Assembly: GCA_041687695.1 (NCBI GenBank)
Contig: JAWLBL010000057.1
Coordinates: 1-13,292, forward strand
From: Myxococcota bacterium
GTDB taxonomy: Bacteria; Myxococcota_A; UBA9042; PHBI01; JAWLBL01
DNA: 13,292 bases
Reading direction: 5' to 3'
Under the pieces are notes generated by a model that did no database searches, was not told where the DNA came from, and saw only the letters and a list, made by a program, of their open reading frames with translations. The position numbers and the translations under genes are program-made. Below are positions 349 to 13,292 of the stretch, piece by piece. Within the stretch, counting starts at the first letter, position 1. Each line of letters starts with the position of its first letter.

Positions 349-1242
349 TCAGAGGAGGTCGGTGCGGAGGGCCGCGAAGAGGAGGGCGCCGGTGAGGAGG
401 GCGGCGAGGCGGTGGGCCAGGCGGGCGGCGGCCATGGGGCGGGGGGAGGCGCCGAGGCGGGCGAGGACGGCCGGGAAGGCGAGGACGTAGACGAAGGCCA
501 GGGGCCAGGTGAGGGGGGACAGGGCCGGGGTCGCGGCGGCGAGGGCGGTCAGCGACAGGCCGAGGGCGGCCGCGGCGAGGGCGCTGCCGCGGGGGCCGAG
601 CAGGAGGTAGGTCGTGCGGAGGCGGCCGCGGCGGTCGTCGTCGCGGTCGGCGGCCTCGTGGAGCAGCTGGTTCTGCAGGAGCAGGGCGCCGAAACAGAGG
701 GTGAGCGGCAGCATGTCGGCGGCGGCGGCGGCGGTGGGCAGGCCGACCCACAGCAGGGGGGCGAAGTTGGTCAGGTTGGCGAGGCTGCCCAGGACCGGGA
801 AGCGCTTGAGGCGCGGGCCGACCGAGTAGAGGACGCCCGAGGCGAGGCCGACCGCGGTGGCGAGGGCGGCGGGCCAGGGGGCGAAGGCGGCGGCGAGGGT
901 GGCCAGCGCGGCGAGGAGGGCGAGCGGGGCGGCGAAGGACTGGGGGGCGCCGCCGCCGACGATGGGGTTCTTGGCGGCGCTGGCGTCCATGTGGCGGTCG
1001 GCGAGGCCGTTGAGCAGGTAGCCGAAGGCCAGGACCGCGAAGGCGATGAGGACGCCGCGGGTGAGGGCGAGGGCGCTGGCGGCCAGCGGGGCGGCCGGGT
1101 CGTAGCCGGCCAGGGGCAGGAGCAGGAAGTGGGCCCAGTGGCGCAGGCGCGCGGCCTGCAGCCAGCCGGCGCGGGCCGCGGAGGGGCGGAGCGTCAGCGG
1201 GGAGGCGGCGGGGGCGGGGCTGCCGAGGGCCACGCGGCTCAC
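349..1242 (-). CDS. UbiA-family membrane prenyltransferase (about 297 aa)
   Basis: C-terminal part of track ORF 349..2073. Motifs YLLNGLADRHMD (NxxxDxxxD), LYSVGPRLKRFP and HEAADRDDDRRGRLRT, plus multiple hydrophobic helices. The GTG start at 1242 overlaps the upstream TGA (GTGA coupling). Confidence 0.88.
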   Translation of the reverse strand: MSRVALGSPAPAASPLTLRPSAARAGWLQAARLRHWAHFLLLPLAGYDPAAPLAASALALTRGVLIAFAVLAFGYLLNGLADRHMDASAAKNPIVGGGAPQSFAAPLALLAALATLAAAFAPWPAALATAVGLASGVLYSVGPRLKRFPVLGSLANLTNFAPLLWVGLPTAAAAADMLPLTLCFGALLLQNQLLHEAADRDDDRRGRLRTTYLLLGPRGSALAAAALGLSLTALAAATPALSPLTWPLAFVYVLAFPAVLARLGASPRPMAAARLAHRLAALLTGALLFAALRTDLL

Positions 1243-2300
1243 CCGGCGCGGGGCAGGGCCAGCGAGACCTCGATGGCGTGCCACAGGGCGCGGGGGTCGA
1301 AGGCGAGCACGTGGTTGACCTCGTGGGTCGGCACGCACGAGCAGCCCGGGCCCATCGGGGGCGGCATCTGGTGGAAGGCCTGCAGAAAGCCCTGCTGGCG
1401 GCCGTTGCCGGCGGTCTGCTGCCACTGGGTGAGCAGGCACGGGGCCACGGTGCCGTCGCTGAGGACGTAGCCGTAGTACTGGCCGGCGTAGCAGTCCTGG
1501 CAGGAGCCGAGGTAGCGGTGGTCTCGCTGGCGCTCGAGGATCTGGCGGGAATTGCCGACCGGCAGGCCGCGGTCCTTGAGGTCGAGCAGGTGCTGGGCGA
1601 GGCGGCGGATGCGCTCGTCGGACAGGCGAGGGGCGATGGGGGCGTCGACGTCGCAGTGCTTGTCGTGCTCGAGCTGGAAGAAGGCCTGGTGGCCGTAGGC
1701 TCGGGCGACGTCGAGGACGTGCTCGACGTTGTCGGCGCCGCTGGGGGTCAGGACGGTCATGGTGACCGCCGGGACGCGCCGCGAGGCGAGGGCGTCGAGG
1801 GCGCGCAGCACGCGGTCGTAGGAGCCCTTTCGGCGCTGGGTGTCGTGGACCTCGGGCGGGCCGTCGAGGGTGAGGCAGACCAGATCGAGCTTGGCCACGT
1901 CGTCGAGCATGTCGGGGACGAGCCAGCCGTTGGTGTTCATCGCGGTGTGGATGCCGCGGGCCTTCAAGTGGTCGATGATGGCGCCGACGTCGCGGTGGAT
2001 GAGCGGCTCGCCGCCGATGAGGCTGACGCGGCCCATGCCGCCGTCGCGGAAGGCGTCGATGGCGCGGCGCCACTCGTCGAGGGTCAGCTCTTCGCGGTGC
2101 TGCCCCGGGATGTCGCAGTACTCGCAGCGGAAGTTGCAGCGGTTGGTCAGCGACAGGGTCATCTGGAAGGGGCTCTTGCGCCCGAGCAGGCGGCGGGTGC
2201 CCAGCTGCAGGACGGGGACGCTCTGGCGGGCGAGGCGCGAGGCGCGCTGGGCCAGGACCCGGACCGAGGGGCGGCCGTCGCGTGGTGCGGTGGGGCTCAT
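1239..2300 (-). CDS. Radical SAM enzyme with a C-terminal SPASM/twitch-like Cys motif (353 aa)
   Basis: CNFRCEYC (CxxxCxxC), GGEPL, NTNG and C-terminal CYAGQYYGYVLSDGTVAPC...CSC. Confidence 0.93.
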   Translation of the reverse strand: MSPTAPRDGRPSVRVLAQRASRLARQSVPVLQLGTRRLLGRKSPFQMTLSLTNRCNFRCEYCDIPGQHREELTLDEWRRAIDAFRDGGMGRVSLIGGEPLIHRDVGAIIDHLKARGIHTAMNTNGWLVPDMLDDVAKLDLVCLTLDGPPEVHDTQRRKGSYDRVLRALDALASRRVPAVTMTVLTPSGADNVEHVLDVARAYGHQAFFQLEHDKHCDVDAPIAPRLSDERIRRLAQHLLDLKDRGLPVGNSRQILERQRDHRYLGSCQDCYAGQYYGYVLSDGTVAPCLLTQWQQTAGNGRQQGFLQAFHQMPPPMGPGCSCVPTHEVNHVLAFDPRALWHAIEVSLALPRAG

Positions 2301-2306
2301 GGCGTC

Positions 2307-2335
2307 ACGCTAGTGGAGCCTTTGGGCCGTGGCAA
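2307..2335 (-). promoter_or_regulatory. Putative sigma70-type promoter for a leaderless radical SAM-UbiA transcript
   Basis: Minus strand reads TTGCCA-N17-TAGCGT-N6-ATG(2300), with no Shine-Dalgarno sequence. Confidence 0.6.
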
Positions 2336-2350
2336 GTCGCGCCGGCGCGG

Positions 2351-3151
2351 TCAGTTCCAGTGGTACAGGGCGCGCCCGTCGGCGGCCGGGGCGAGGAAGC
2401 CGCCGAGGGTCCAGCGGGGGCGGTCGCCCTGGACCGGGGTGACGCGGTGGTAGTGGCGGCCGGCGTCGAAGATCAGGAGATCGCCGACGGCGGCGCGGGC
2501 GATGGTGGGCGGGTGCTGGGCGAGCAGGGCTTCGAGCTGGGGGCCGGCGCGGTCCATGCGGTTCAGGGCGGCGCCGGGGCCCTCGGCGTAGCGCAGGGGG
2601 TAGACCTCTAGCTCGCCGCCGGCCTCGGGGAGGGCGAGCGGGGTGTAGAAGCTGAGGGTGGTCAGGCGGGCCGTCTGCGGGGTGAGGTCGGCCATGGCGG
2701 GGAAGGCGGCGGTCTCGTTCTCGCAGTGCAGGCGGATGGTGCCGCCGGGGGCGAGCATGCGCAGGCCCATGGGGGCGTAGGAGCGGCCGGAGGCGTGGAC
2801 GGGGCGGCGGACCTGTCGGCCGGGGGCGAGGGCGGACAGGACCTCGCGCAGGCGCTGCTCGAGGTCGACGCCGGCGGCGGTGAGGGAGGCGAGGGCGTCG
2901 GCCTGGCCGAAGTAGGGGGTCAGATCGGGGCCCGAGACGATGAGGGTCGGGCCGTAGTTGCGGCCGGTGTAGTGGCCGGGGTCGAGGCCGGGGAGGTGGC
3001 CGGCGAGGGCGGCGTCGAGGACGGCGGCGGGGACGTCGGGCGGCAGGAAGCCGCGCAGGATGACGCCGGTCTGCTGGCCGGCGAGCAGGCGGTCGAGCAG
3101 CCCGGGGTCGGCGGCGGCCTGGTCGAGGGTCAGGTGCTCGATGGTCAGCAT
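2351..3151 (-). CDS. 2OG-Fe(II) oxygenase superfamily protein (266 aa)
   Basis: The real start is MLTIEHL within track ORF 2351..3646. HxE (LHCE), GGELEVY, GDLLIFD and distal His/Arg (YHRVTPV...RWT). Confidence 0.88.
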   Translation of the reverse strand: MLTIEHLTLDQAAADPGLLDRLLAGQQTGVILRGFLPPDVPAAVLDAALAGHLPGLDPGHYTGRNYGPTLIVSGPDLTPYFGQADALASLTAAGVDLEQRLREVLSALAPGRQVRRPVHASGRSYAPMGLRMLAPGGTIRLHCENETAAFPAMADLTPQTARLTTLSFYTPLALPEAGGELEVYPLRYAEGPGAALNRMDRAGPQLEALLAQHPPTIARAAVGDLLIFDAGRHYHRVTPVQGDRPRWTLGGFLAPAADGRALYHWN

Positions 3152-3158
3152 GGCGCGG

Positions 3159-3187
3159 ACGGTAGCACCGGGGTGGGGTGGGGACAA
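3159..3187 (-). promoter_or_regulatory. Putative sigma70-type promoter with extended -10, leaderless
   Basis: Minus strand reads TTGTCC-N17(ending TGC)-TACCGT-N7-ATG(3151), with no Shine-Dalgarno sequence. Confidence 0.55.
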
Positions 3188-3225
3188 TCGGAGGCGGGTG
3201 CGGTCGGCGGCGCGGGGGCGGGCGG

Positions 3226-5583
3226 TCAGGGTTGCTCGTGGCGGCGGCGCCAGGGGAGGCGGTGGGGGCGCAGGCCGGCGGTGGAGGGGCGGACGCGCTG
3301 GCCGGCGAGGAGGATGAGGTCGGGGGCGGCGAGGACGGACGGGTCGAGGCGCGGGTCGCGGCGGAAGAGGACCAGGTCGGCGGGGGCGCCCTCGGTGAGG
3401 CCGGGCTCGCCGAGGTAGGCGCGGGCGGTCCAGGAGGCGGCGCCGACGGCGGCGTCGGGGGACAGGCCCAGGGCGATGAGCTCGTCGACCTCGTCGGCGA
3501 CGGTGACCTCGGGGAACCAGTCGGTGCCGGCCAGGATGGGCACGCCGCGGGCGTGGGCGTAGGGGATGAGGTGCGCGAGGCGCTGCATCGAGCGCTCGAC
3601 CCAGGCGACCCGGTCGGCGTCGCCGTCGCGGCGGAGCTTTTGCCACATGGACATGGCGATGCCGGCGAGGGGGACCCAGGCGGTGCGCCGTCCGGGCGTG
3701 GGATCGGCGGCCATCTGGTCGATGAGGGGCTCGTCGAGGCCCCAGCCGTGCTCGAGGGAGTCGACGCCGGCCTCGAGGGCGACCTGGGCGCCGGCGCGGG
3801 TGAAGGCGTGGGCGGCGACGCGGACGCCCAGGGCGTGGACGGCGGCGACGGCGTCGGCCAGGACCGGCAGGGGGTAGGTGACCTCGTCGTCGGCGCCGAA
3901 GCCGGGGCGCTCCTTGCCGCCGAAGTCGTCGGTCCAGTCGGCGAAGACCTTGACCCAGCGGGCGCCGGCGTGGGCGCGGGCGAGGAAGGCGTCGCGGAGG
4001 CGGTCGGGGGGCGTGGCGGCGAAGGAGAAGGCGTCCGAGCGCAGGACGCAGGTGCCGGCGGCGTGGACGCGCGGCAGGCCGGGGGCGTCGCCCAGCGAGA
4101 GGACGGCGTCGCTGGAGGCGCCCAGCTCGCGCAGCAGGGTGACGCCGGAGCCGGCGTACAGGGCGCGCATGTCGTTCATGTAGGCCGCGGCGTGGGCGGG
4201 GGTGTCGGCGTCGTGGGCCCAGCTGACGTGGGCGTGGGCGTCGACCAGGCCCGAGCAGACGAAGCCGCCGGGGGCGGCCAGGGAGGGGGCGCCGGGGACG
4301 GGGTCGAAGGTGAGGCGGCCGTCAAGGACCCAGAGGTCGACCGGCGCGTGGCCGTCGGGGAGCAGGGTCGCGCGGAGGTGGAAGGCCTGGGTCGCGGGGG
4401 CCGGGGCGGCGGGCGCGGGCGGGTGGACGCGGGGCCAGGCGGGGCTTGCGGCGGGGTCGCCGGGGCTCAGGCCGGGGCCGAAGGAGGCCAGCAGGTGCTG
4501 CATGGTCGGGGTGGTGGGGCGCTTGACGCGGGCGCCGTCGGCGAAGAAGTGCAGGGCCAGGGCGACGCGCGGGGTGGCCGAGCGGTTGGGGGTGGCGCCG
4601 TGGAAGGTCCAGCCGTCGTGGAAGCTGACGTCGCCCAGGCGCAGGGGCGGCAGGTGGCGGACGGGCAGGCCGCGCTGGGCGATGACCTGGGTGAAGAGGG
4701 CCTCGCTGGCGTCGCAGATGTTCTCGATGTCGACCGGCGGGCCGAGGTGCGAGCCGAGGGCGAAGCGGAGCAGGCCCATGTCGGGCGAGGTGTCCTGCAG
4801 CGGGAGCCAGGCGGTGACGCTGGCGGCGGCGTCGAAGGGGTAGCAGACGGCGTCCTGGTGCCAGGGGGTGAGGGCGGCCTCGGGCTCCTTGACGAACCAG
4901 TCCTCGCAGAAGACGCGGACGGCGGGGACGCCCATGAGGTCGGCGGCCAGGCGGGCGAGGCGCGGGGCGTGGGCGAGGGCGCGGACGCGCGGGTCGTCGA
5001 GGCCGAGGTTGGTGACCTGGACGAAGGCGGCCGAGTAGGCGTCGGGGCGGCGGGACGGGGGCGGCAGGTCGGGGGGCCAGGCGCGCTGGAGGGCGACCTC
5101 TACGTCGGGGCGGGCGGCGAGGAGGACCTCGCGGTCGAGGGCGCCGCGGAGGAGGAGGTGGCCGTCGGCGCGGTAGGCGGCGCGCTGGGCGTCGGTCAGG
5201 GCGAGCGGGGCGGCGAGGTGGGCGCGGTGGCGTGGGGAGGGGAAGGCGGCGCCGTCGGAGGGGGCGGTCAGGGCGCGCGGGTCGAGCGGGTCGAGTGCGG
5301 CGGCGGCGAAGGCGGCCTCGAGGGCGTCGAGGGCGGCGTCGAGGAGCTGGCGCTGGGCGGGGGCGAGGCTGGCGCCGCCGGAGCGGTACTGGTAGGCGCG
5401 GGGGCCGACGGTGCGGTAGGCGGGCTGGCCGGCGGCGACGACGCGGAGCTCGAGGGGGCCGCCCTCGGTGTCGAAGGCGAGGGCGAGGCCCTCGCGGGTG
5501 GGCCACAGGTCGGACAGGCGCCAGCGGTCGCCGGTGCGCTGGGCGACCGCGGCGGCGAGGGCGCGCTCGACGGCGAGGTTCAT
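3226..5583 (-). CDS. Fusion of an unknown N-terminal domain, a PhyH-family (phytanoyl-CoA dioxygenase-like) domain and a metal-dependent amidohydrolase (785 aa)
   Basis: PhyH motifs FVKEP...TPWHQD, VTAWLPL and SFHDGWTFHGATPN...R. Amidohydrolase ligands GLVDAHAH, WVKVFA, AAHA, SLEHG and AGTD. The two are joined by the linker PPAPAAPAPA. Confidence 0.9.
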   Translation of the reverse strand: MNLAVERALAAAVAQRTGDRWRLSDLWPTREGLALAFDTEGGPLELRVVAAGQPAYRTVGPRAYQYRSGGASLAPAQRQLLDAALDALEAAFAAAALDPLDPRALTAPSDGAAFPSPRHRAHLAAPLALTDAQRAAYRADGHLLLRGALDREVLLAARPDVEVALQRAWPPDLPPPSRRPDAYSAAFVQVTNLGLDDPRVRALAHAPRLARLAADLMGVPAVRVFCEDWFVKEPEAALTPWHQDAVCYPFDAAASVTAWLPLQDTSPDMGLLRFALGSHLGPPVDIENICDASEALFTQVIAQRGLPVRHLPPLRLGDVSFHDGWTFHGATPNRSATPRVALALHFFADGARVKRPTTPTMQHLLASFGPGLSPGDPAASPAWPRVHPPAPAAPAPATQAFHLRATLLPDGHAPVDLWVLDGRLTFDPVPGAPSLAAPGGFVCSGLVDAHAHVSWAHDADTPAHAAAYMNDMRALYAGSGVTLLRELGASSDAVLSLGDAPGLPRVHAAGTCVLRSDAFSFAATPPDRLRDAFLARAHAGARWVKVFADWTDDFGGKERPGFGADDEVTYPLPVLADAVAAVHALGVRVAAHAFTRAGAQVALEAGVDSLEHGWGLDEPLIDQMAADPTPGRRTAWVPLAGIAMSMWQKLRRDGDADRVAWVERSMQRLAHLIPYAHARGVPILAGTDWFPEVTVADEVDELIALGLSPDAAVGAASWTARAYLGEPGLTEGAPADLVLFRRDPRLDPSVLAAPDLILLAGQRVRPSTAGLRPHRLPWRRRHEQP

Positions 5584-5611
5584 CGCGGCACGCGGCGTTG
5601 CCGGGCCATCC

Positions 5612-5914
5612 TCACGGCAAGGGCCCCGCGGGCGAGTCGTCGTCGAGGTCGAGCGCCAGGCGCAGGCCCGTGTTGCCCAGGAAGAAGAAGGGCGGCCAGC
5701 CGATGCGCCAGCTGTTGCGGTGGCTGATCTTGCTCATCTCGTTGCCGATGAAGCCGCCGCCGCGGGCGACGCGCCAGGCGAAGTGGCTGTTGCCTTCGGC
5801 GGATTGCTCGCGGGTGGGGCCGGTCGGGTCGGTGACCTCGGCGGGGGTGAGGGCGTAGGCGTTGGCCAGGTAGAAGTCGGCGACCCACTCGAAGTTGTTG
5901 CCGATCATGTCGAA
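5612..5914 (-). pseudogene. 3' fragment of a formylglycine-generating-enzyme (FGE-sulfatase/SUMF1) domain gene, truncated by the integrated element
   Basis: FDMIGNNFEWVADFY, RVARGGGF and GLRLA match the C-terminal FGE motifs (DMxGNxxEW, RGGxF, GFR). An in-frame TAG at 5926-5924 lies four codons upstream of FDM, so the N-terminal half is missing. Confidence 0.85.
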
Positions 5915-5964
5915 GGGGGCTGACTAGCAACGCCGGACGGGTAGACCGCTCAGGAGGTGTTGCC

Positions 5965-6219
5965 GTGACGAGCCCCAGACCCAACGACCCGCAGAACGTC
6001 AGGCCCATCGACACGTCGGCCGCCGACCGTCGTCTCGCCGAGCGCGCTGCCCGCGCCGCAAGCGAGCACCTCGGCCCATGGTCGGAGGAGCAGGTGGCCG
6101 CCTACGTGCAGGCGTGGATTAGCGCCCCGCCCGCCATCTACCGGGGGAAGACGATGATCCCGGTCGACGTGCACGGACTGGGCGTCGCTGCCGCTCTGGC
6201 CATCGGGGGTGGCCGGTGA
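5965..6219 (+). CDS. Small hypothetical protein (84 aa), translationally coupled to the recombinase
   Basis: AGGAGG at 5952-5957 precedes GTG 5965. Its stop overlaps the recombinase start (GTGATG, 6216-6221). Confidence 0.72.
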   Translation: MTSPRPNDPQNVRPIDTSAADRRLAERAARAASEHLGPWSEEQVAAYVQAWISAPPAIYRGKTMIPVDVHGLGVAAALAIGGGR

Positions 6220-8042
6220 TGCTCGCTCAGACGAACCCGGAACTACGGCTCATCGCGCTCGTCCGCGTCTCGACCCAGGGGCAAGCCGACGAGGGCACCC
6301 CGGAGACACAGAGGGCCATCATCAGGCGCATCGCCCAGCGCGAGGGGGTCACCGAAGACCGCCTCACGTGGGTCGAGGTATCGAACGTCAGTGGCGGCAA
6401 CTGGACCGCGACCCCCGAGTGGCGCCGGCACGTCGAGCCGTTCCTGAGCGACCCGAACGTCCACATCGCCTGTTACCACCCCGACCGGGTGTGCAGAGCG
6501 ACCAAGCCTGCCGAACTGGAAGCCCTGTACCAGATCCTGTCGTCGGGCACGCTCATCTACCACCCCATGGGAGTTAAGGTGCCGTCGCCTGATGGTGACT
6601 TCACCATCGACTACCTGGAGGGCCTTCTCGCAGGCCGCGAGAAGCTGCGGATCAAGCAGAGAACATGGGACGCCAAGGAGGACATGCGCAGGTCGGGGCA
6701 GGTCCCGGATCCCAGGCACCTACCGCTGGGCGTCACCTACGACCGCGAGTCCCAGAAGTGGAGCTACACCGAAGACGCCGAGATCGTCCGCCGCGCGTTC
6801 GAGATGTTCGTCGTTGACGGGATCGACAACCTGAGCGCGATCGGGCGGGCGTGCGGAGGGGTTCATGCCTCTCGAATCGCAGCGTGGATGCGCAACCCGC
6901 TCTACCGAGGTGTTCGCGTCATCGATCACTGGGCCAGAGGCGAGTACGTCCCGGGGCCTGACGGACGCCAGGGGACTCACAAGCTCGTGCCGCGTCCGAA
7001 GGATCAGATCATCCGGGTTCGGGTGTTCGACCCGGCCGACCAGCTGATCGACGATGAGACTTGGCGGGCCGCGAACGCACGACTCGACCAGCGAGCGGGC
7101 AAGCGGCGGGCTGCCCGCTCCACGAACCTCGACGCGATCTGGCTCACGGGCTTCATGTGGTCCGCGCACGAGAGGCTCGGGCCGCAGGCGGACGGCTGGA
7201 TCACACTGGACCTGAGCCGGCCGGCTGAACACGTCGTTTACGGAGCCAGCGGGTACCACGGGCTGCGCTACCACTGCGCCTGCAAGGGGACCCGCAACAG
7301 GCTGGAGAAGTGCGGCTTCCGGCACCTCGAAGCGGGAGTCGTCAACCGAGCCCTGGACAACTACCTGACCGCCATGTGCACCGAGGGTTGGTTCACGGAG
7401 CGAGTTCGCGCCGGTGGGAGCACCGCCAAACCGAAGAAGGACGAGCGGCCCATCCTGGAGGCGCAGATCCAAGCCGTGGAGCGCAAGCTCGCGCGCTTGG
7501 CCGACCTATACCTCGACGAGAAGATCAGCAGGGTCGAGCACGACAAGCGGCACGACGGCCTGACCACCGAGCGGTCCAGGCTACAGGCTGCCCTCGATGC
7601 CCTTGGTACGCTGCCCGTCGTCGACCAACAGGCCGTCGAGGACGCTCTGGCAGCGATGACGTGGGATGCGGGCTGGATGGCCGAAGCGAAGCGCGACTGG
7701 ATGGCACGCTACCGGGTACGGGTGCGCGTGAGCAACACCGGCGTCGAGTCTGTCAGCCTGCGGTTCGCAGGAGCCAACGGCCTCCCCACCTACGTCCTGA
7801 CCCATCCACGAACGTGGGAACAGCTCGCTGGCGTGAAGGACCCGGCCGACGCGCGCTCAAGGTCAGAGTCTGAGGGGTACTACGGCCGAGCCGAGGCGGT
7901 GGCGTACCTGGGCGTCAGCGTTGCCCGGTGGCGCTACTGGAACAAGCGCAGCTACCTGCCCGCCCCAGACCGGATGGCCGGCAAGCGGGGCGAGTGGCAC
8001 CGGGACACGCTGGAGAGCCTTCGTGGGCGGTTCAAACTGTAG
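6216..8042 (+). CDS. Large serine recombinase (integrase) with an extra C-terminal helix-turn-helix; start is GTG 6216 or ATG 6219
   Basis: Catalytic VRVSTQGQ (Ser codon 6270-6272) and DRVCR. Recombinase domain PLGVTY...EDAEIVRRAFEMF...NPLYRG...LIDDETW. Coiled coil LEAQIQAVERKLARLADLYLDEKIS. Confidence 0.95.
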   Translation: MMLAQTNPELRLIALVRVSTQGQADEGTPETQRAIIRRIAQREGVTEDRLTWVEVSNVSGGNWTATPEWRRHVEPFLSDPNVHIACYHPDRVCRATKPAELEALYQILSSGTLIYHPMGVKVPSPDGDFTIDYLEGLLAGREKLRIKQRTWDAKEDMRRSGQVPDPRHLPLGVTYDRESQKWSYTEDAEIVRRAFEMFVVDGIDNLSAIGRACGGVHASRIAAWMRNPLYRGVRVIDHWARGEYVPGPDGRQGTHKLVPRPKDQIIRVRVFDPADQLIDDETWRAANARLDQRAGKRRAARSTNLDAIWLTGFMWSAHERLGPQADGWITLDLSRPAEHVVYGASGYHGLRYHCACKGTRNRLEKCGFRHLEAGVVNRALDNYLTAMCTEGWFTERVRAGGSTAKPKKDERPILEAQIQAVERKLARLADLYLDEKISRVEHDKRHDGLTTERSRLQAALDALGTLPVVDQQAVEDALAAMTWDAGWMAEAKRDWMARYRVRVRVSNTGVESVSLRFAGANGLPTYVLTHPRTWEQLAGVKDPADARSRSESEGYYGRAEAVAYLGVSVARWRYWNKRSYLPAPDRMAGKRGEWHRDTLESLRGRFKL

Positions 8043-8310
8043 CCTGCGGGGACGTGGAGGCATCAAACCGGAAACCTCAATGATTTCGACTGCTGGGCGA
8101 CTCCTCCCGCTCCAGCCATCCTCCGCTCATTCGTCAGCCCACGTGCTAGCCGAAAGAAAGTGCATCGAGGATCCTGAGTGGTTCTCCCAGGTTGGCTGGG
8201 GTGGGGAATCCTCCAGGCTCAAGTCGGCGGGCTCGTCCCTATTAGGGGTGGCCTCGCCCCCTCCTCCATCCGAGTGGTGAGGTCGCAACCCTCTGACTGC
8301 GAGCCTCACC

Positions 8311-10491
8311 ATGAACGCAACGTCCCCCTCCGCATCCCCCCAGAGCCGCACCCCTCGCCTGCGCGAGCGCACCCACGGCGACGACGCCCTCGGCACCCCC
8401 GTGCACATCCTCGACACCGTGCGCCGCTTCGCCGGCAGGCGGTGCCGCCACGACCACAACGGCAGGATCAACCTCGACCCCGCCTCGTCCCCCGAACACA
8501 ACGCCCTCGTCGGGGCGGAGCGCATCTACACCGTCGAGGACGATGGACTCGCGCAGGTGTGGGACGCCCGTTTCCTCTGGCTGAATCCGCCCTTCGGGGT
8601 CCAGGCCGGCAGGAGCGTCAAGGCGATGTGGTTCGTCAAGGCGGTCGAGGAGTACCGGGCTGGGCACCTGACGGAAGCGGTCGTGCTCCTTCCGACGGCG
8701 CTCGACGCCAAGTGGTTCGGCGACGTGACGCCCTGGCCACGGGTGGACCTGCGCGACCGCGTGCGGTTCAGGGGCGCGGTAGGCGCCGGAGCGCAGACGC
8801 CCATCTGCCTCGTTTACCTGGGCTCCGACGTAGACGGGTTCTTCGAGTTCTTCGGGCAACTCGGCACGCCCGTTCCGGGTGTCACGCCCGACCGCGACGA
8901 CGGACCCGACCTGATCGGCGAGCTGTTCGAGTCGGCAGCGGCTGAGCCCAAGAAACCCGACACCCTCCACGCCTTCCTGAACCAACACCCCGGCGCCATC
9001 CTCGAACCGGCAGAGGTCACCCCCGACGACCTGCGCGCCTGGCTCGCCGAGGGGGATGAACACAACCGTGCCGGGGCGCGCAGCGCGTACCTCGTGGGTC
9101 GTGCACTGCTCGTCCAGCGCCAGACCACGAAGCACGGCAACGTCGCGAACTGGGCGGGAGAGCAGGCGTCCCTCCTCGGGCGGTCGGCCCGGACCATCCG
9201 GCTCTACGTTCAGGTCGCCCGAGCCGTCGATGCTGAATCGGCAACGCCGCTGCCGATCTCGGTCCTCGACCGTCCCCTGCGCGACGTTCCCTCCGCCATC
9301 CGCGCCGTTCGGGAGGGGCGGGACCCGGACGCCAGACCGGAACCCAAGCCGAAGCCACCCTCGAAGCCGAAGGTCGGCAAAGTCGAGCAGTGGCGCCAGA
9401 GCGCCCATGATCTGGTGTCGTCCCTGCCTCGCGGTGCGAGCCGTAAGGAACTCCTGCGTGCGCACCTGGTCGAGGTCTACCACGCGCTCCTGGCGGTGGA
9501 CCCCGAACTCGTGGAGCACGTGCCCCCGCAGCCGCAAGATGCCGACCAGACGCCCTTCGCGGTCGCGGCAGCGGCTGCTGTGGCAACGGACAAGCCCCTC
9601 CCGCCGAGTGTGCTGAAGGCGCGCAAGCTGGTCGTGCCGCCGATGACCTACGCGGGGGGCAAGACCCGCGTGAAGAAGCCCCTGGTCGAAGCGACCGGTG
9701 TTCTCGTCGGGTGCGGGATGTACGGCGACCGTGTGTTCCGCGAGCCCTTCGCGGGCGGAGGCGCTGTGTCGCTGAACATGCGCGCAACGGGACGTGCCGG
9801 GATGGTCTGGCTGAACGATGCCGAACGGGGTGTCGCGGCGTTCCACACCGCTGTCGTCCGCGAGCCCGGCGAACTCATCGACCGCGTGGAGTCCGTCCAG
9901 ATCACCAGCGAGCTGGTTTGGGACTGTTCGGCGGCGCTCGACGCCGGCGACCTGAAGGGGATCGATCTCGCAATGGCGGAACTGATCGTGAGGCAGTGCT
10001 TCTTCGGAGGGTTCGGGCGCATGTCCGGAAGCCTGCGCACGAACCTCACGTCCCGCTGGAACACCAGGCTAATCGTCACCCGCATCAAGACGGCGCACCG
10101 TCTTCTCAAGGGTCGAGTCCTCTACAACGAGTGCACGAACCTCGACGCCCGGGAGGTCATCGCCGCACCCGGTCAGTGCTTCATCTACGCCGACCCGCCC
10201 TACGTGCAGGCGGGACCGGACCTGTACCCGCAGCCGCTCGATGCGGCAATGCACCGGGAACTCGCCGGTGCACTCCTGGCGACCGACCAGCCCTGGCTCC
10301 TCTCCTACGACGACCATCCGCTCGTGCACGAGCTGTACAGAGGCTCCGTCTTCAACGAGATCCTCGTGCCACGCCAGAACAAGCCAGCCGTGCCTGAACT
10401 GCTGATCTGCCCGGCCGGACACGCCGACATCCTGCGCCCCGATGACGAGCCCGACCTCATCCAAGAAATCTTTGGACGCGGCGTGCCGTGA
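8311..10491 (+). CDS. Double DNA adenine methyltransferase fusion: phage-type N6-adenine MTase, DUF3102-like HTH and D12/Dam-class MTase (726 aa)
   Basis: N-terminal TP...LDPAS...DDGL...WLNPPFG...LLP...WF...RVRF. Middle VGRALL...KHG...W...SARTIRLYVQVA. C-terminal YAGGK, EPFAGGGAV, WLND, FIYADPPY, LLSYDD and ELLI. Confidence 0.9.
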   Translation: MNATSPSASPQSRTPRLRERTHGDDALGTPVHILDTVRRFAGRRCRHDHNGRINLDPASSPEHNALVGAERIYTVEDDGLAQVWDARFLWLNPPFGVQAGRSVKAMWFVKAVEEYRAGHLTEAVVLLPTALDAKWFGDVTPWPRVDLRDRVRFRGAVGAGAQTPICLVYLGSDVDGFFEFFGQLGTPVPGVTPDRDDGPDLIGELFESAAAEPKKPDTLHAFLNQHPGAILEPAEVTPDDLRAWLAEGDEHNRAGARSAYLVGRALLVQRQTTKHGNVANWAGEQASLLGRSARTIRLYVQVARAVDAESATPLPISVLDRPLRDVPSAIRAVREGRDPDARPEPKPKPPSKPKVGKVEQWRQSAHDLVSSLPRGASRKELLRAHLVEVYHALLAVDPELVEHVPPQPQDADQTPFAVAAAAAVATDKPLPPSVLKARKLVVPPMTYAGGKTRVKKPLVEATGVLVGCGMYGDRVFREPFAGGGAVSLNMRATGRAGMVWLNDAERGVAAFHTAVVREPGELIDRVESVQITSELVWDCSAALDAGDLKGIDLAMAELIVRQCFFGGFGRMSGSLRTNLTSRWNTRLIVTRIKTAHRLLKGRVLYNECTNLDAREVIAAPGQCFIYADPPYVQAGPDLYPQPLDAAMHRELAGALLATDQPWLLSYDDHPLVHELYRGSVFNEILVPRQNKPAVPELLICPAGHADILRPDDEPDLIQEIFGRGVP

Positions 10492-10648
10492 TTCTCGGAT
10501 TCTCGCCTTCGAGAAAGTCGGCTCCGAGAATCTGATTCTCGGGGGCTCAGATTCTCCGAAACGCGATTCTCGGGATCGAGAATCGGATTCTCGACGCGCT
10601 CAGATTCTCACGGTGGGGGTCTGCGAGAATCTGAGCACGTCGAGAATC
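10490..10648. repeat. Array of 11 GATTCTC/GAGAATC heptamers between convergent genes
   Basis: GATTCTC at 10490, 10498, 10534, 10550, 10565, 10586 and 10603. GAGAATC at 10526, 10578, 10625 and 10642. Confidence 0.95.
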
Positions 10649-10661
10649 TATGCTGCACGTC

Positions 10662-11414
10662 TCAGAATTCAGCGCCCATGCGAAGTAGTTGCTCGGAGTT
10701 GCCCATGCTCTGCACCGCGAGGGATTCGAGCAGCGTCCACTGATCCGGGTCCAAGTCCATCACGGCATCATGGCGGTAGATAAAGTGTCGGGCGAAGGTG
10801 TTCTCAAGCAACTCCTGCGTCTCGCCCAACTTGAACACTCGCGCTTCAGGAAGGCTCCCTTCCAAGGGCATGTCTTTGCGCTTCAGAGACTTCGAGCCAG
10901 GCTCCGGCGGTGGTGGGAATGGGCGTATCCGGTCGTAACGCAAGCGTTCTGGGATTCCCTCTTCGACCGAGCGCAGGTGCTCGTGCACTCGGTCGAGGTC
11001 CGATGGAAACAAGTCCTCCGCTCCAATCTTCGCGAGAATTTTCTTGAGTTCGTCCAGCAAGTTGCCGATGTGGTGGATTTCCTCAGCGAAGCGTTCAGGT
11101 GGGCATTCGTCAGGTAAGCCTCGCTGAAGACGCTGGATGCGTTGCTTATCTGCTGCCACTGAGTACGCGAGTCCGGTCACGTCCTTGATGGCGAGTTCGA
11201 AGGCGTGGCGCTGAAGGTAGGCGACTGGTAGGGCCACCTCGTCGGTTCGACCTTGCTCCGCCGCAACTTCGAGGGTCATGCGCGCCGCGAGGAGGTACGA
11301 GAGCCTGTAGTGCGGCTTCTTCCAGACTCCCCCGATCTTCGCGTCGTGGGTCTGTGCACCGGGCGTGCCGAAGCCGACGATCATGTCGTAGAGCCCATCA
11401 GGTGCCGCTCGCAT
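10662..11414 (-). CDS. Hypothetical helical protein, HEPN-like (250 aa)
   Basis: ATG at 11414 is preceded by AGGAG. Pattern SYLLAA...D..ALP..YLQRHAFELAIK...HHIGNL...RLRY resembles the ExxLK...HxL...RY layout of HEPN domains. GC content is lower than in neighbouring genes. Confidence 0.65.
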   Translation of the reverse strand: MRAAPDGLYDMIVGFGTPGAQTHDAKIGGVWKKPHYRLSYLLAARMTLEVAAEQGRTDEVALPVAYLQRHAFELAIKDVTGLAYSVAADKQRIQRLQRGLPDECPPERFAEEIHHIGNLLDELKKILAKIGAEDLFPSDLDRVHEHLRSVEEGIPERLRYDRIRPFPPPPEPGSKSLKRKDMPLEGSLPEARVFKLGETQELLENTFARHFIYRHDAVMDLDPDQWTLLESLAVQSMGNSEQLLRMGAEF

Positions 11415-11648
11415 ACCGGTTCTCCTAGAACGATTTCTTCGCGACGCGAAGCAGCCTGCCGCACCTCCTCCTCCTCCGCAAGCGCAGCACGGCCGACGCG
11501 CCCACTGAAATCGACAGGGCTCACCTGCCGACTTTCGGCGGGAGTCGAAAAATGTGCACCGGGGGGAGTGCATCGTGCCCATGAGCCGGGTAACGTGATG
11601 TGTGTCGGGCGGTGACCCCATCCGGCCGGGATCTGTGATGCTGTCATA

Positions 11649-11672
11649 CCCCTCCCCCGACGGGGGGAGGGG
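11649..11672. other. Perfect 10-bp hairpin in the divergent intergenic region upstream of the primase gene
   Basis: CCCCTCCCCC-GACG-GGGGGAGGGG. Confidence 0.7.
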
Positions 11673-11829
11673 GTGCTTCTCTAAAGTAGCAGCACCACGA
11701 GAGACCAAAGCACGACAGTAGAGCGATCCAACGGCTGGCGCAGCGCCCAGACACCAAGCGTGCAGCGTAGCCAGTCAGCCCTGCCGATGGATCTCCTGAC
11801 GCCATTCCACGGGCGAGGAGACGGCACGT

Positions 11830-13292
11830 ATGGGCAACTGGAAGAACCTCGGAACGGAAGCCACCGAAGCCGCAGCAGCCGCGCTGCTGGGACACCTCGG
11901 GCTGTCAATCACCGCGTCATGGGACGACGCGCTGGTGGGCAAGGCGGACTACTACCTCTGGTCGGGCGAGTACCCCGGCGACACCAAGGGGCGCTACTGG
12001 ATTCCCGCGCTGTTCAAGTGCGCCGACCTCCCCGGGGTCATCCAGCAGGTCGCTCGCGAGGACGGCATCACAGAGGCCGAGGCCTCCGAGAAGGTGCGCC
12101 GGTTCCACCGTGGACTGGGCAAGGATCGGGTCGCCCTTGCCTTCTGCGCCTTCGTTGAGATCGATCACCTTTCGCGTGCCGAGCAGGAACGGCTGCTCGC
12201 CGAACTTGCGAACGTGACGGGGCTCGGGTGGACGCTCAAGGTCTTCACGGGCGGGAAGTCCGTCCACGCCTACCTCGCGTTCGACCGCGCACTCGACCCG
12301 AACGACCCGCTCCGCGAGGAGATACAGAACCTCCTCGTCGTCTGCCTCACCGGCGACACGAAGATCACCGACCCTGGGCGCCTGATGCGCCTGCCCGGTT
12401 GGGACGGCGACCGCAAGCAGCCCGTCGTCCACTTGGACAGCACGGTCCACCAGTCTCCCGAGGGCATCCGGGATGCCCTGCGAGTCCGAGCAGGGGCGCT
12501 TGGATGCGACGACGTAGACGCGGCTCGGCAGAACCTCCGCCTCGCCGAGCGCCTGGAGACAAAAGCGCGTCACGAAGGCGGCGGCGAGGGCGCCCTCGAA
12601 CTCCGCGACCACGCAGTACGGGTTCGGGAGACGCGGGGCAGCCTGTCGGACGAAGACCGCGACCTCGCCCACATGATGCTGGGCTCGAAGCCCCCCGTCA
12701 GCACTTCGAAGGTGACCGGCACCAAGGGCACAGGGGCGGTTCAGCGCGGCGACCTCGGGACCATCGCCGGACTGAAGAAGGGAAGCCGCACCGACCTCCC
12801 GTGCTGCGACCTCGGCGGCGAGGCGGGCGTTGTCCTGCACGACGCGGGCGAGGCGCCACGTGCCTACTGCCATCGGTGCGAAGTCACCTGGCTCCACCAG
12901 CAGGCGCCCGTTGCCTTCGTCCAGATGGAGGCGACCGGTAACACCACTTCGCTTAAGTGTAAGACAACCACGACCGGAAGTGATGTTACGACGACGGACC
13001 CGAGGTCCCGGTCCTTCCGCAAGGTGACGCGCTACTTGCCCCGCGACCTCGTGCAGGGGAAGTACATCCCGAACGCCCCTCTGACCCATCGCCTGACGCT
13101 CTTGAAGGCGGGCAAGGGCAGTGGGAAGACCGAGTACGCCGCGCACCAGGTGTCGGAGCACCAGGGGCGGGCAGTCGGTAACCGTCCGATATCGTGTCAG
13201 GTCCCCCCTTCCCAACCCGGTAGCGGGAGGGTAGGTCCAGAATTGGCGTCCCTCGTCCTGCGCGGCGATACCGAGAGCCGTGGGCGGGACGT
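11830..13292 (+). CDS. Replication protein: RepB-type/AEP primase domain, zinc finger and start of a P-loop helicase. Partial and probably interrupted at about 13177
   Basis: Missing from the ORF track because there is no stop in the window. GAGGAG (11815-11820) precedes ATG 11830 (MGNWKNLG...). Manual translation gives FVEID, VFTGGKSVHAY, DTKITDPGRLMRLPG, PCC...YCHRC and Walker A LLKAGKGSGKT (about 13099-13131). Confidence 0.88.
   Translation, partial: MGNWKNLGTEATEAAAAALLGHLGLSITASWDDALVGKADYYLWSGEYPGDTKGRYWIPALFKCADLPGVIQQVAREDGITEAEASEKVRRFHRGLGKDRVALAFCAFVEIDHLSRAEQERLLAELANVTGLGWTLKVFTGGKSVHAYLAFDRALDPNDPLREEIQNLLVVCLTGDTKITDPGRLMRLPGWDGDRKQPVVHLDSTVHQSPEGIRDALRVRAGALGCDDVDAARQNLRLAERLETKARHEGGGEGALELRDHAVRVRETRGSLSDEDRDLAHMMLGSKPPVSTSKVTGTKGTGAVQRGDLGTIAGLKKGSRTDLPCCDLGGEAGVVLHDAGEAPRAYCHRCEVTWLHQQAPVAFVQMEATGNTTSLKCKTTTTGSDVTTTDPRSRSFRKVTRYLPRDLVQGKYIPNAPLTHRLTLLKAGKGSGKTEYAAHQVSEHQGRAVGNRPISCQVPPSQPGSGRVGPELASLVLRGDTESRGRD
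12938..12989. other. Intragenic inverted repeat around a relatively AT-rich spacer (candidate replication origin)
   Basis: GTAACACCACTTC (12938-12950) / GAAGTGATGTTAC (12977-12989) match at 12/13, with a 26-bp spacer containing CTTAAGTGTAAG. Confidence 0.5.
13178..13292. mobile_element. Possible terminus of an IS66-family insertion sequence
   Basis: GTAACCGTCCG resembles IS66 terminal repeats (GTAA-start, GTAAGCGTCC-like). The helicase-like protein sequence degenerates at this point. Confidence 0.45.

Follow-up and report, generated by a model that had tools for sequence, protein, structure and literature searches.

Two methyltransferase domains, a helix-turn-helix and a GATTCTC array in a defective prophage-like element of a Myxococcota bacterium

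Introduction

Why should a gene for two DNA methyltransferase domains run straight into a dense array of one short motif? The question is raised by a 13,292-bp stretch from a Myxococcota bacterium (assembly GCA_041687695.1, contig JAWLBL010000057.1), which we call the window and which is the entire contig. An open reading frame (ORF) at 8311-10491 on the plus strand encodes a 726-aa protein with two methyltransferase domains and a helix-turn-helix (HTH), and its TGA is overlapped by the first GATTCTC copy of the array. The initial annotation had seen here a double adenine methyltransferase that methylates and/or binds its own array. We tentatively prefer a different answer, in which the methylase, the site of its HTH and the array are three neighbours and not one machine. 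They lie in the left end of a prophage-like element that was integrated by a large serine recombinase and broken by insertion sequence (IS) ends; this copy is defective.

Results and Discussion

Origin of the 726-aa protein

8311..8928, plus strand: phage-type Dam methyltransferase domain, residues 1-206, with NPPF and an IGELF tail (PF05869; 58% identity to the C-terminal domain of P0008)
8953..9336, plus strand: DUF3102/ParB-like HTH domain, residues 215-342 (62 representatives, hhalign, structure model)
9631..10491, plus strand: alpha-class (D12) amino-methyltransferase domain with FAGGG, DPPY and an IQEIF tail (PF02086; 7M6B, which is M.CbeI)

The domain order first read from the sequence, NPPF and DPPY methyltransferase domains around an HTH in one ORF, was borne out by Pfam matches over cut-off and by a modelled HTH. 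PF05869 (Dam) matched residues 51-137 (E 5.7e-8, 33.1 bits against a cut-off of 28.1) and PF02086 (D12) matched residues 447-682 (E 2.4e-13, 50.9 bits against a cut-off of 22), with FAGGG preceding DPPY. Both catalytic motifs, NPPF at residues 92-95 and DPPY at residues 628-631, are intact. The middle domain is predicted to be all-helical with an HTH, the structure model having a predicted local distance difference test (pLDDT) score of 92.

Relatives of the protein carry these domains apart. Only the window's own protein, one of 10 matches (proteins of 399-1271 residues), has both methyltransferase domains; seven have D12 only and two Dam only, and in all nine single-domain matches the HTH stands before the methyltransferase (in P0007 only in part). 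The middle domain retrieved 62 representatives in a HMMER search, and the 66 HTH relatives scanned have D12, Dam, N6_N4 or DnaX-like AAA payloads or none, with two methyltransferases in 0 of 66. Residues 19-206 share 58% identity with the C-terminal domain of the HTH-Dam protein P0008, and residues 217-722 share 48-54% with HTH-D12 proteins. An IxELF-like tail is present twice, at residues 202-206 (the domain junction) and at residues 717-721 (the C-terminus); it forms the C-terminal end in 10 of 66 family proteins, against a background of 6 in 724 windows. Because the relatives are single-domain proteins and the internal tail sits at the junction, a Dam gene appears to have been read through into a neighbouring HTH-D12 gene. 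Judged from these comparisons, the 726-aa protein very probably arose recently, when two orphan methyltransferase genes of one mobile-element family, HTH-Dam and HTH-D12, became fused by read-through. Double methyltransferases can, on this evidence, arise by simple read-through, with no shared target needed.

The IxELF tail resembles a sliding-clamp motif. By eye the P0030 payload also looked like a sliding clamp, but it had no match in the PDB and the idea was dropped. The same HTH is also found joined to DnaX-like AAA domains, N6_N4 methyltransferases and long uncharacterised domains (P0015, P0020, P0067 and L195 8841-10949), as a portable module.

Which base the C-terminal domain modifies

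The best solved match of the C-terminal domain is 7M6B, with 76 bits compared to 40 for DpnM and 35 for EcoDam, although the match is a distant one (E 3.7e-9 with a single sequence, 1.6e-20 with a profile). 7M6B is M.CbeI (PMC8616854). M.CbeI is annotated as a D12 adenine methylase, yet makes N4-methylcytosine in GGCC despite its DPPY (PMC3425538). Against TIGR00571 (dam) the C-terminal domain scored 31.5 bits, where the cut-off is 114.85. By these matches the second methyltransferase domain may write N4-methylcytosine, and adenine is not established as the base modified by both domains, as 'double adenine' would have it. The analogy drawn at first with M.FokI is weak as well: the two domains come from different families and occur singly in relatives, and among solved structures the closest relative of the C-terminal domain is an N4-cytosine enzyme.

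GGCC is depleted in the element (5926-13176 plus the element end on contig C1), with 54 sites observed and 94 expected, the host ratio being 0.98. Because AGCT (15 against 36) and GATC are likewise under-represented there, this depletion names no methylation target. The absence of an evident restriction endonuclease nearby, also noted initially, held for the ORFs scanned, which gave no restriction-enzyme family match (Pfam, PHROGs and NCBIfam, with PADLOC for the antisense ORF); that ORF is uncharacterised, and the middle of the element is unassembled. The two methyltransferase domains would most likely act on separate short sites, shielding or marking element DNA.

A palindrome within the HTH gene

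9237..9257, unstranded: palindrome ATCGGCAAC-gcc-GCTGCCGAT, candidate self-binding site, in coding sequence just past the HTH recognition helix

The middle domain aligned with the DUF3102-bearing protein P0037 at 98.7% (hhalign). PF11300 (DUF3102) itself gave no Pfam match in the 726-aa protein and was above cut-off in 2 of 66 relatives, with one more below; an Atlas row has PF11300 on 30% of members with a score of 0.91, which serves as a lead only. The HTH model matched SopB with a probability of 0.72 at E 1.1, and its matches to VirB, SopB, KorB and ParB were weak but recurrent (Z 3.6-4.3, root-mean-square deviation 3.4-3.9 over 71-78 residues). A sequence search of the PDB with the HTH profile returned nothing meaningful.

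The palindrome is the genome's sole site within two mismatches of its symmetric form and exceeds synonymous recoding at p 0.01. The same position was scored in 42 of the 49 loci given (one duplicate, five gapped loci and one without a match were left out), and symmetry above synonymous recoding at p <= 0.05 was found in 11 of them, the window included, with different letters each time. All four methylase fusions are among these 11 (p 0.002-0.01), and the locus of the closest homologue with DNA available (L220, protein P0006) has a perfect intragenic palindrome. When the encoded peptides were compared, a perfect 8-bp arm was possible for 20 of 53 distinct ones, compared with a mean of 8.5 when the halves were shuffled, and 0 of 300 left/right shuffles reached the observed mean (relatedness not corrected; 6 of 66 proteins gapped).

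These observations make it probable, as far as sequence can tell, that the ParB-type HTH binds the palindrome in its own gene. Docking there would serve autoregulation or would keep the enzyme anchored on the element. Weighing against this reading, 31 of the 42 HTH loci have no significant palindrome, related rows are not independent, and the structural resemblance to ParB-family domains is weak (Z about 4). GGCAA-N5-TTGCC palindromes like the intragenic site also lie outside the HTH gene, at 2068 and 3041 in L130 and directly past the stop in L127-L129. No literature on DUF3102 with a methyltransferase, or on self-sites in this HTH family, was found by title.

The HTH family is of wider interest, as an unstudied ParB-like domain with what seems to be its own DNA address in the gene and with interchangeable payloads (three methyltransferase families and DnaX-like AAA). 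If domains of this family do direct a methyltransferase to a single element, nature would already have locus-targeted DNA writers in them.

The array as a possible replication origin

10490..10648, unstranded: array of 11 GATTCTC in both orientations (motif count, spacing, folding)
10662..11414, minus strand: 250-aa antisense ORF of a scattered unnamed family (GC content 0.60; 28 matches including itself)
11649..11673, unstranded: GC-rich hairpin upstream of the primase-helicase gene (read from the sequence)
11830..13177, plus strand: 5' part of a primase / zinc-finger / origin-binding-helicase (CyRepA1-like) gene, cut by an IS end (PHROG primase and helicase)

All 11 exact copies of GATTCTC in the window lie at 10490-10648, seven on the plus and four on the minus strand, whereas 200 shuffles gave a mean of 0.96 and a maximum of 4. 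The 7.97-Mb genome holds 79 copies in total, and the array is its sole cluster of at least three. The copy number and the overlap with the TGA stand, and so does the view of the array as a non-random cis element plausibly tied to replication. Conservation is limited to a 7-8-mer (consensus about TCAGATTCTCG) while the spacers vary; four same-strand pairs are phased at 52-53 bp, and one internal block of 33-34 bp is duplicated. The array occupies the gap between two convergent stop codons, those of the 726-aa ORF and the antisense ORF. No terminator-like or promoter-like site was called in the array, and no sigma-70 promoter-like site was called in 8040-11850.

Iteron origins of the P4/SaPI type have a short motif in both orientations near a primase-helicase, with an AT-rich unwinding region. 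The two orientations and the 52-53-bp phasing fit such origins, and the array lies 1.2 kb upstream of the primase-helicase start at 11830. We think it possible, at somewhat below an even chance, that the array gives the element a docking platform with many sites, its likeliest use being as an iteron-type origin that the primase-helicase reads. A full-length relative of that protein (P0070) matches PF02399 and reaches 180.4 bits against NF042913 CyRepA1, where the cut-off is 200; the window protein is cut before this domain. CyRepA1 is a plasmid replication initiator (PMC9978351).

The antisense ORF, which now stands between the array and the primase-helicase gene, has a GC content at third codon positions (GC3) of 0.72 compared with 0.85 for its neighbours and is probably later cargo; its arrival would have separated the two. 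Members of its family (230-250 aa) share an invariant P-x-A-Y-L-Q-R-H-A-x-E motif, look HEPN-like and are scattered in unrelated contexts. At the loci of its homologues the array was found in 0 of 3.

A parallel came from a related element, G249:C24 (L195), the one of 16 wider stretches with a comparable array. Its order is HTH-AAA, D12 methylase, a 12-copy two-orientation TGTTCCC array, a small HTH and a primase-helicase, which is the window order with the lower-GC antisense gene set aside. At L195 10960-12253 a frameshifted D12 methylase precedes the 12 TGTTCCC/GGGAACA copies, and the small HTH, the primase-helicase and a tyrosine recombinase come next. Upstream of the two closest primase relatives lie similar words: in the prophage of G424, four GAGAGCC within 146 bp just before the primase-helicase core (L212 3781-3926; p 0.05-0.06), and in G411 two GATTCTC. 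A separate two-orientation cluster, five copies of AACAAGTG, is found near the tail genes of G424 (L211 2910-3031).

Several points weigh against an origin read by the primase-helicase. The G249 primase-helicase is from another family and the motif there is different, and the degenerate word common to G424, G411 and the array was chosen after the fact. Upstream of primase-helicase relatives an array at p < 0.05 was found in 0 of 6, with nothing at four distant ones, and none of three downstream stretches had one. The array has a GC content of 0.55 and lacks an AT-rich core; of the sampled 60-bp windows, the sole one below 50% GC is at 11001, within the antisense ORF. Finally, the assembly lacks the C-terminal half of the helicase, in which a domain that reads the site would be expected. 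A viral scan with the primase alignment gave 0 of 31 stretches.

Pattern searches with the motif itself were also made. The same-strand triple pattern gave 120 stretches in viral contigs, mostly coding tandem repeats, with both orientations in 4 of 121 loci. The mixed-orientation pattern was found in 26 viral stretches and in 4 of 401 phylum genomes (its own included), the other three genomes having only three copies each; six window proteins were compared with the viral mixed-orientation loci, and no relative of any of them was encoded there. The idea that the motifs are Fur boxes was rejected on sequence grounds: the viral matches have GAGAAT-N-ATTCTC, the array GAGAAT-N3-ATTCTC.

Other possible readers of the array

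5908..5914, minus strand: probable attachment-site core TTCGACA, the element end (same 7-mer at C1:492550-492556; both are profile breakpoints)
5965..6219, plus strand: 84-aa ORF overlapping the recombinase start (GC3 0.86; no Pfam or PHROG match)
6216..8042, plus strand: large serine recombinase with a C-terminal HTH (PF00239, PF07508; PHROG 95 integrase; PHROG 597 at 551-600)

Instead, some other DNA-binding protein that the element encodes could dock on the array, which would then serve excision, resolution, partition or packaging and not replication; candidates are the recombinase with its C-terminal HTH, the product of the 84-aa ORF, a resolvase and proteins encoded in the unassembled middle. 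We regard this as rather unlikely. The recombinase does carry a C-terminal HTH, the middle of the element is missing from the assembly, and a small serine resolvase family recurs beside HTH and primase relatives (six loci), its G411 copy being directly preceded by two GATTCTC and by a 15-nt stretch that matches the array. Against this, the G424 recombinase keeps the HTH, but no such array is present there, and the attachment site is 4.6 kb from the array. Three of the 107 class genomes contain the 15-nt pattern, one of them within an ordinary gene, which is near chance, and neither flank of the other resolvase loci has more than one copy of the 6-mer. The 15-nt extension common to G411 and the array was set aside, its matches in G399 and L343 lying within coding sequence, and a res-site reading of the array found little support at the resolvase loci.

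Less likely still, and in our view improbable, is the model put forward initially: the fused enzyme would methylate both strands of GATTCTC (or GAWTC) and/or bind the array via its HTH, as a methylation-state switch or gated origin. It draws on the array beginning within the stop codon, on the two intact catalytic motifs, on the double-domain protein and the array both being unique to this locus among everything searched, and on the precedent of MhoVII and FokI, whose fused two-class methyltransferases modify both strands of an asymmetric site (PMC12898733). Homologues with their own downstream arrays were looked for as a check, and none was found among the single-domain relatives that the check covers. 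No array lies past the stop of L220, the closest HTH-D12 homologue (49% identity over 507 residues), and none was found at two further HTH-D12 fusions (L139; L125, with 142 bp available). GATTCTC was absent from 43 of 48 HTH-homologue loci and present as isolated copies in five (flanks mostly 1.5 kb), so that 0 of 48 had at least two copies within 200 bp. With alignment A5, scans for HTH relatives gave 0 of 254 metagenome and 0 of 76 viral stretches. One weak match in a metagenome scan with P0006 (L151) was not used, and the sole genome-scan locus for HTH relatives (L122) was an out-of-frame chance match. Because protein and array are both locus-unique, single-domain relatives are no strict test of the fused form. 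Other observations also speak against the model: the internal C-terminal tail is the mark of a chance-like read-through junction, the C-terminal domain scores higher against an N4-methylcytosine enzyme for GGCC than against DpnM or EcoDam, the HTH has a different and better supported candidate site (9237-9257), and in G249, with the same methylase-then-array order, the TGTTCCC motif has an adenine on one strand only. The array as a special target of the methyltransferase is not supported.

It is doubtful, more so than either of these, that the array works as a single-stranded structure (hairpins ending or stabilising the convergent transcripts, or a cruciform) or that it arose neutrally as DNA was locally duplicated and inverted. 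The array does span the space between the convergent stops, folds into stacked hairpins (z -6.9 against shuffles) and contains the 33-34-bp duplication, and the host genome has many other hairpin-repeat clusters. Yet only the 7-8-mer is kept while the spacers differ, which fits protein sites, the presence of one motif in two orientations accounts for the folding, the array was found to have no T-tract terminator, and the motif cluster is single-copy in the genome. Equally doubtful is a self-addressed switch. In it the HTH would anchor the enzyme at the palindrome of its own gene, 1.25 kb from the array, and each methyltransferase domain would modify one strand of the GATTCTC iterons in cis. 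Methylation state would then gate primase-helicase loading, and the IxELF tail would couple this to replisome passage.

The mobile element

5612..5914, minus strand: 3' part of an FGE-sulfatase-domain host gene (PF03781 profile positions 179-254)
13178..13292, plus strand: repeat ends at the contig break, 17 bp of one repeated element and then the end of a second, IS-like repeat

That the methyltransferase gene is an orphan in a mobile element, as read at first, is borne out by the integrase and a split host gene. PF03781 profile positions 179-254 of the FGE-sulfatase-domain gene are in the window and positions 7-180 at C1:492127-492555, the end of contig C1; near 5900 the GC content drops from 0.76 in host DNA to 0.66. 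The TTCGACA match by itself is not unique, another match of equal length existing.

The recombinase is 31% identical to that of the G424 prophage, the nearest relative that is whole, where it and the primase-helicase (44%) lie 81 bp apart with no methylase or array in between. Downstream genes there, by eye, encode terminase, portal, capsid and tail tube. Because recombinase and primase-helicase are adjacent in G424, the 3.7 kb with methylase, array and antisense ORF are accessory to a prophage-like backbone. The window's primase-helicase gene is cut at 13178 by nested repeat ends, one IS-like end having inserted 17 bp into the end of another element. The repeats at 13178-13292 are common to the ends of contigs C36 and C53 and of C1, C38, C55 and C60, and the middle of the element is absent from the assembly.

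The element's other end (L121, G000:C1:489000-496189) has small phage-like ORFs at 3551-7082; a fragment at 6357-7082 on the minus strand looks, by eye, like the C-terminus of a C5-cytosine methyltransferase and has no NCBIfam match. A second prophage-like block in the same genome (G000:C19, about 119000-138700) has terminase, portal, capsid and tail tube 24-44% identical to those of the G424 prophage; it is accompanied near 116060 by four copies of CGTCTCATCTGGGGGA in direct orientation, and could be a helper of the window's element. At 1-342 the window has a hairpin-rich repeat in two copies of 109 bp with 233 bp between them; this repeat recurs at dozens of genomic positions and also at many contig ends. 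A host gene cluster on the minus strand (349-5583) encodes, among other proteins, a radical SAM/SPASM protein and a PhyH dioxygenase-amidohydrolase fusion.

Prophages are known to carry each of these parts, namely orphan methyltransferases, HTH-methylase fusions and iteron arrays, and the locus is most likely a curious but ordinary defective element.

Comparison with known systems

Like the iteron origins of P4 and SaPI/PICI, the array has a short asymmetric motif in both orientations near the primase-helicase of an integrated element. Unlike them, it has no AT-rich core, it lies upstream with a cargo gene in between, and the helicase is CyRepA1/UL9-like and not of the D5/P4 type. An iteron origin has also been described for PLE (PMC7145576).

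The 726-aa protein shares with M.FokI and M12.MhoVII two methyltransferase domains in one chain, and MhoVII also joins two classes (PMC12898733). These belong to type IIS restriction-modification systems with an endonuclease and are conserved fusions. The window protein, with an HTH set between its domains, is a fusion observed only once, and its flanking ORFs gave no endonuclease match. Closer to the HTH part are the ParB-HTH-fused N6A methyltransferases in phage ParB-terminase loci (Iyer et al., PMC4738411). The window protein differs from these in its added D12 domain, in the place of the HTH between two domains and in having no adjacent terminase gene, and resembles them in being a phage-borne Dam-type methyltransferase joined to a ParB-type HTH with no partner endonuclease. 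M.CbeI, in the sources cited above, is unlike the window protein a stand-alone restriction-modification enzyme for GGCC, but the two have in common the alpha-class fold, the DPPY motif and the annotation as a D12 adenine methylase.

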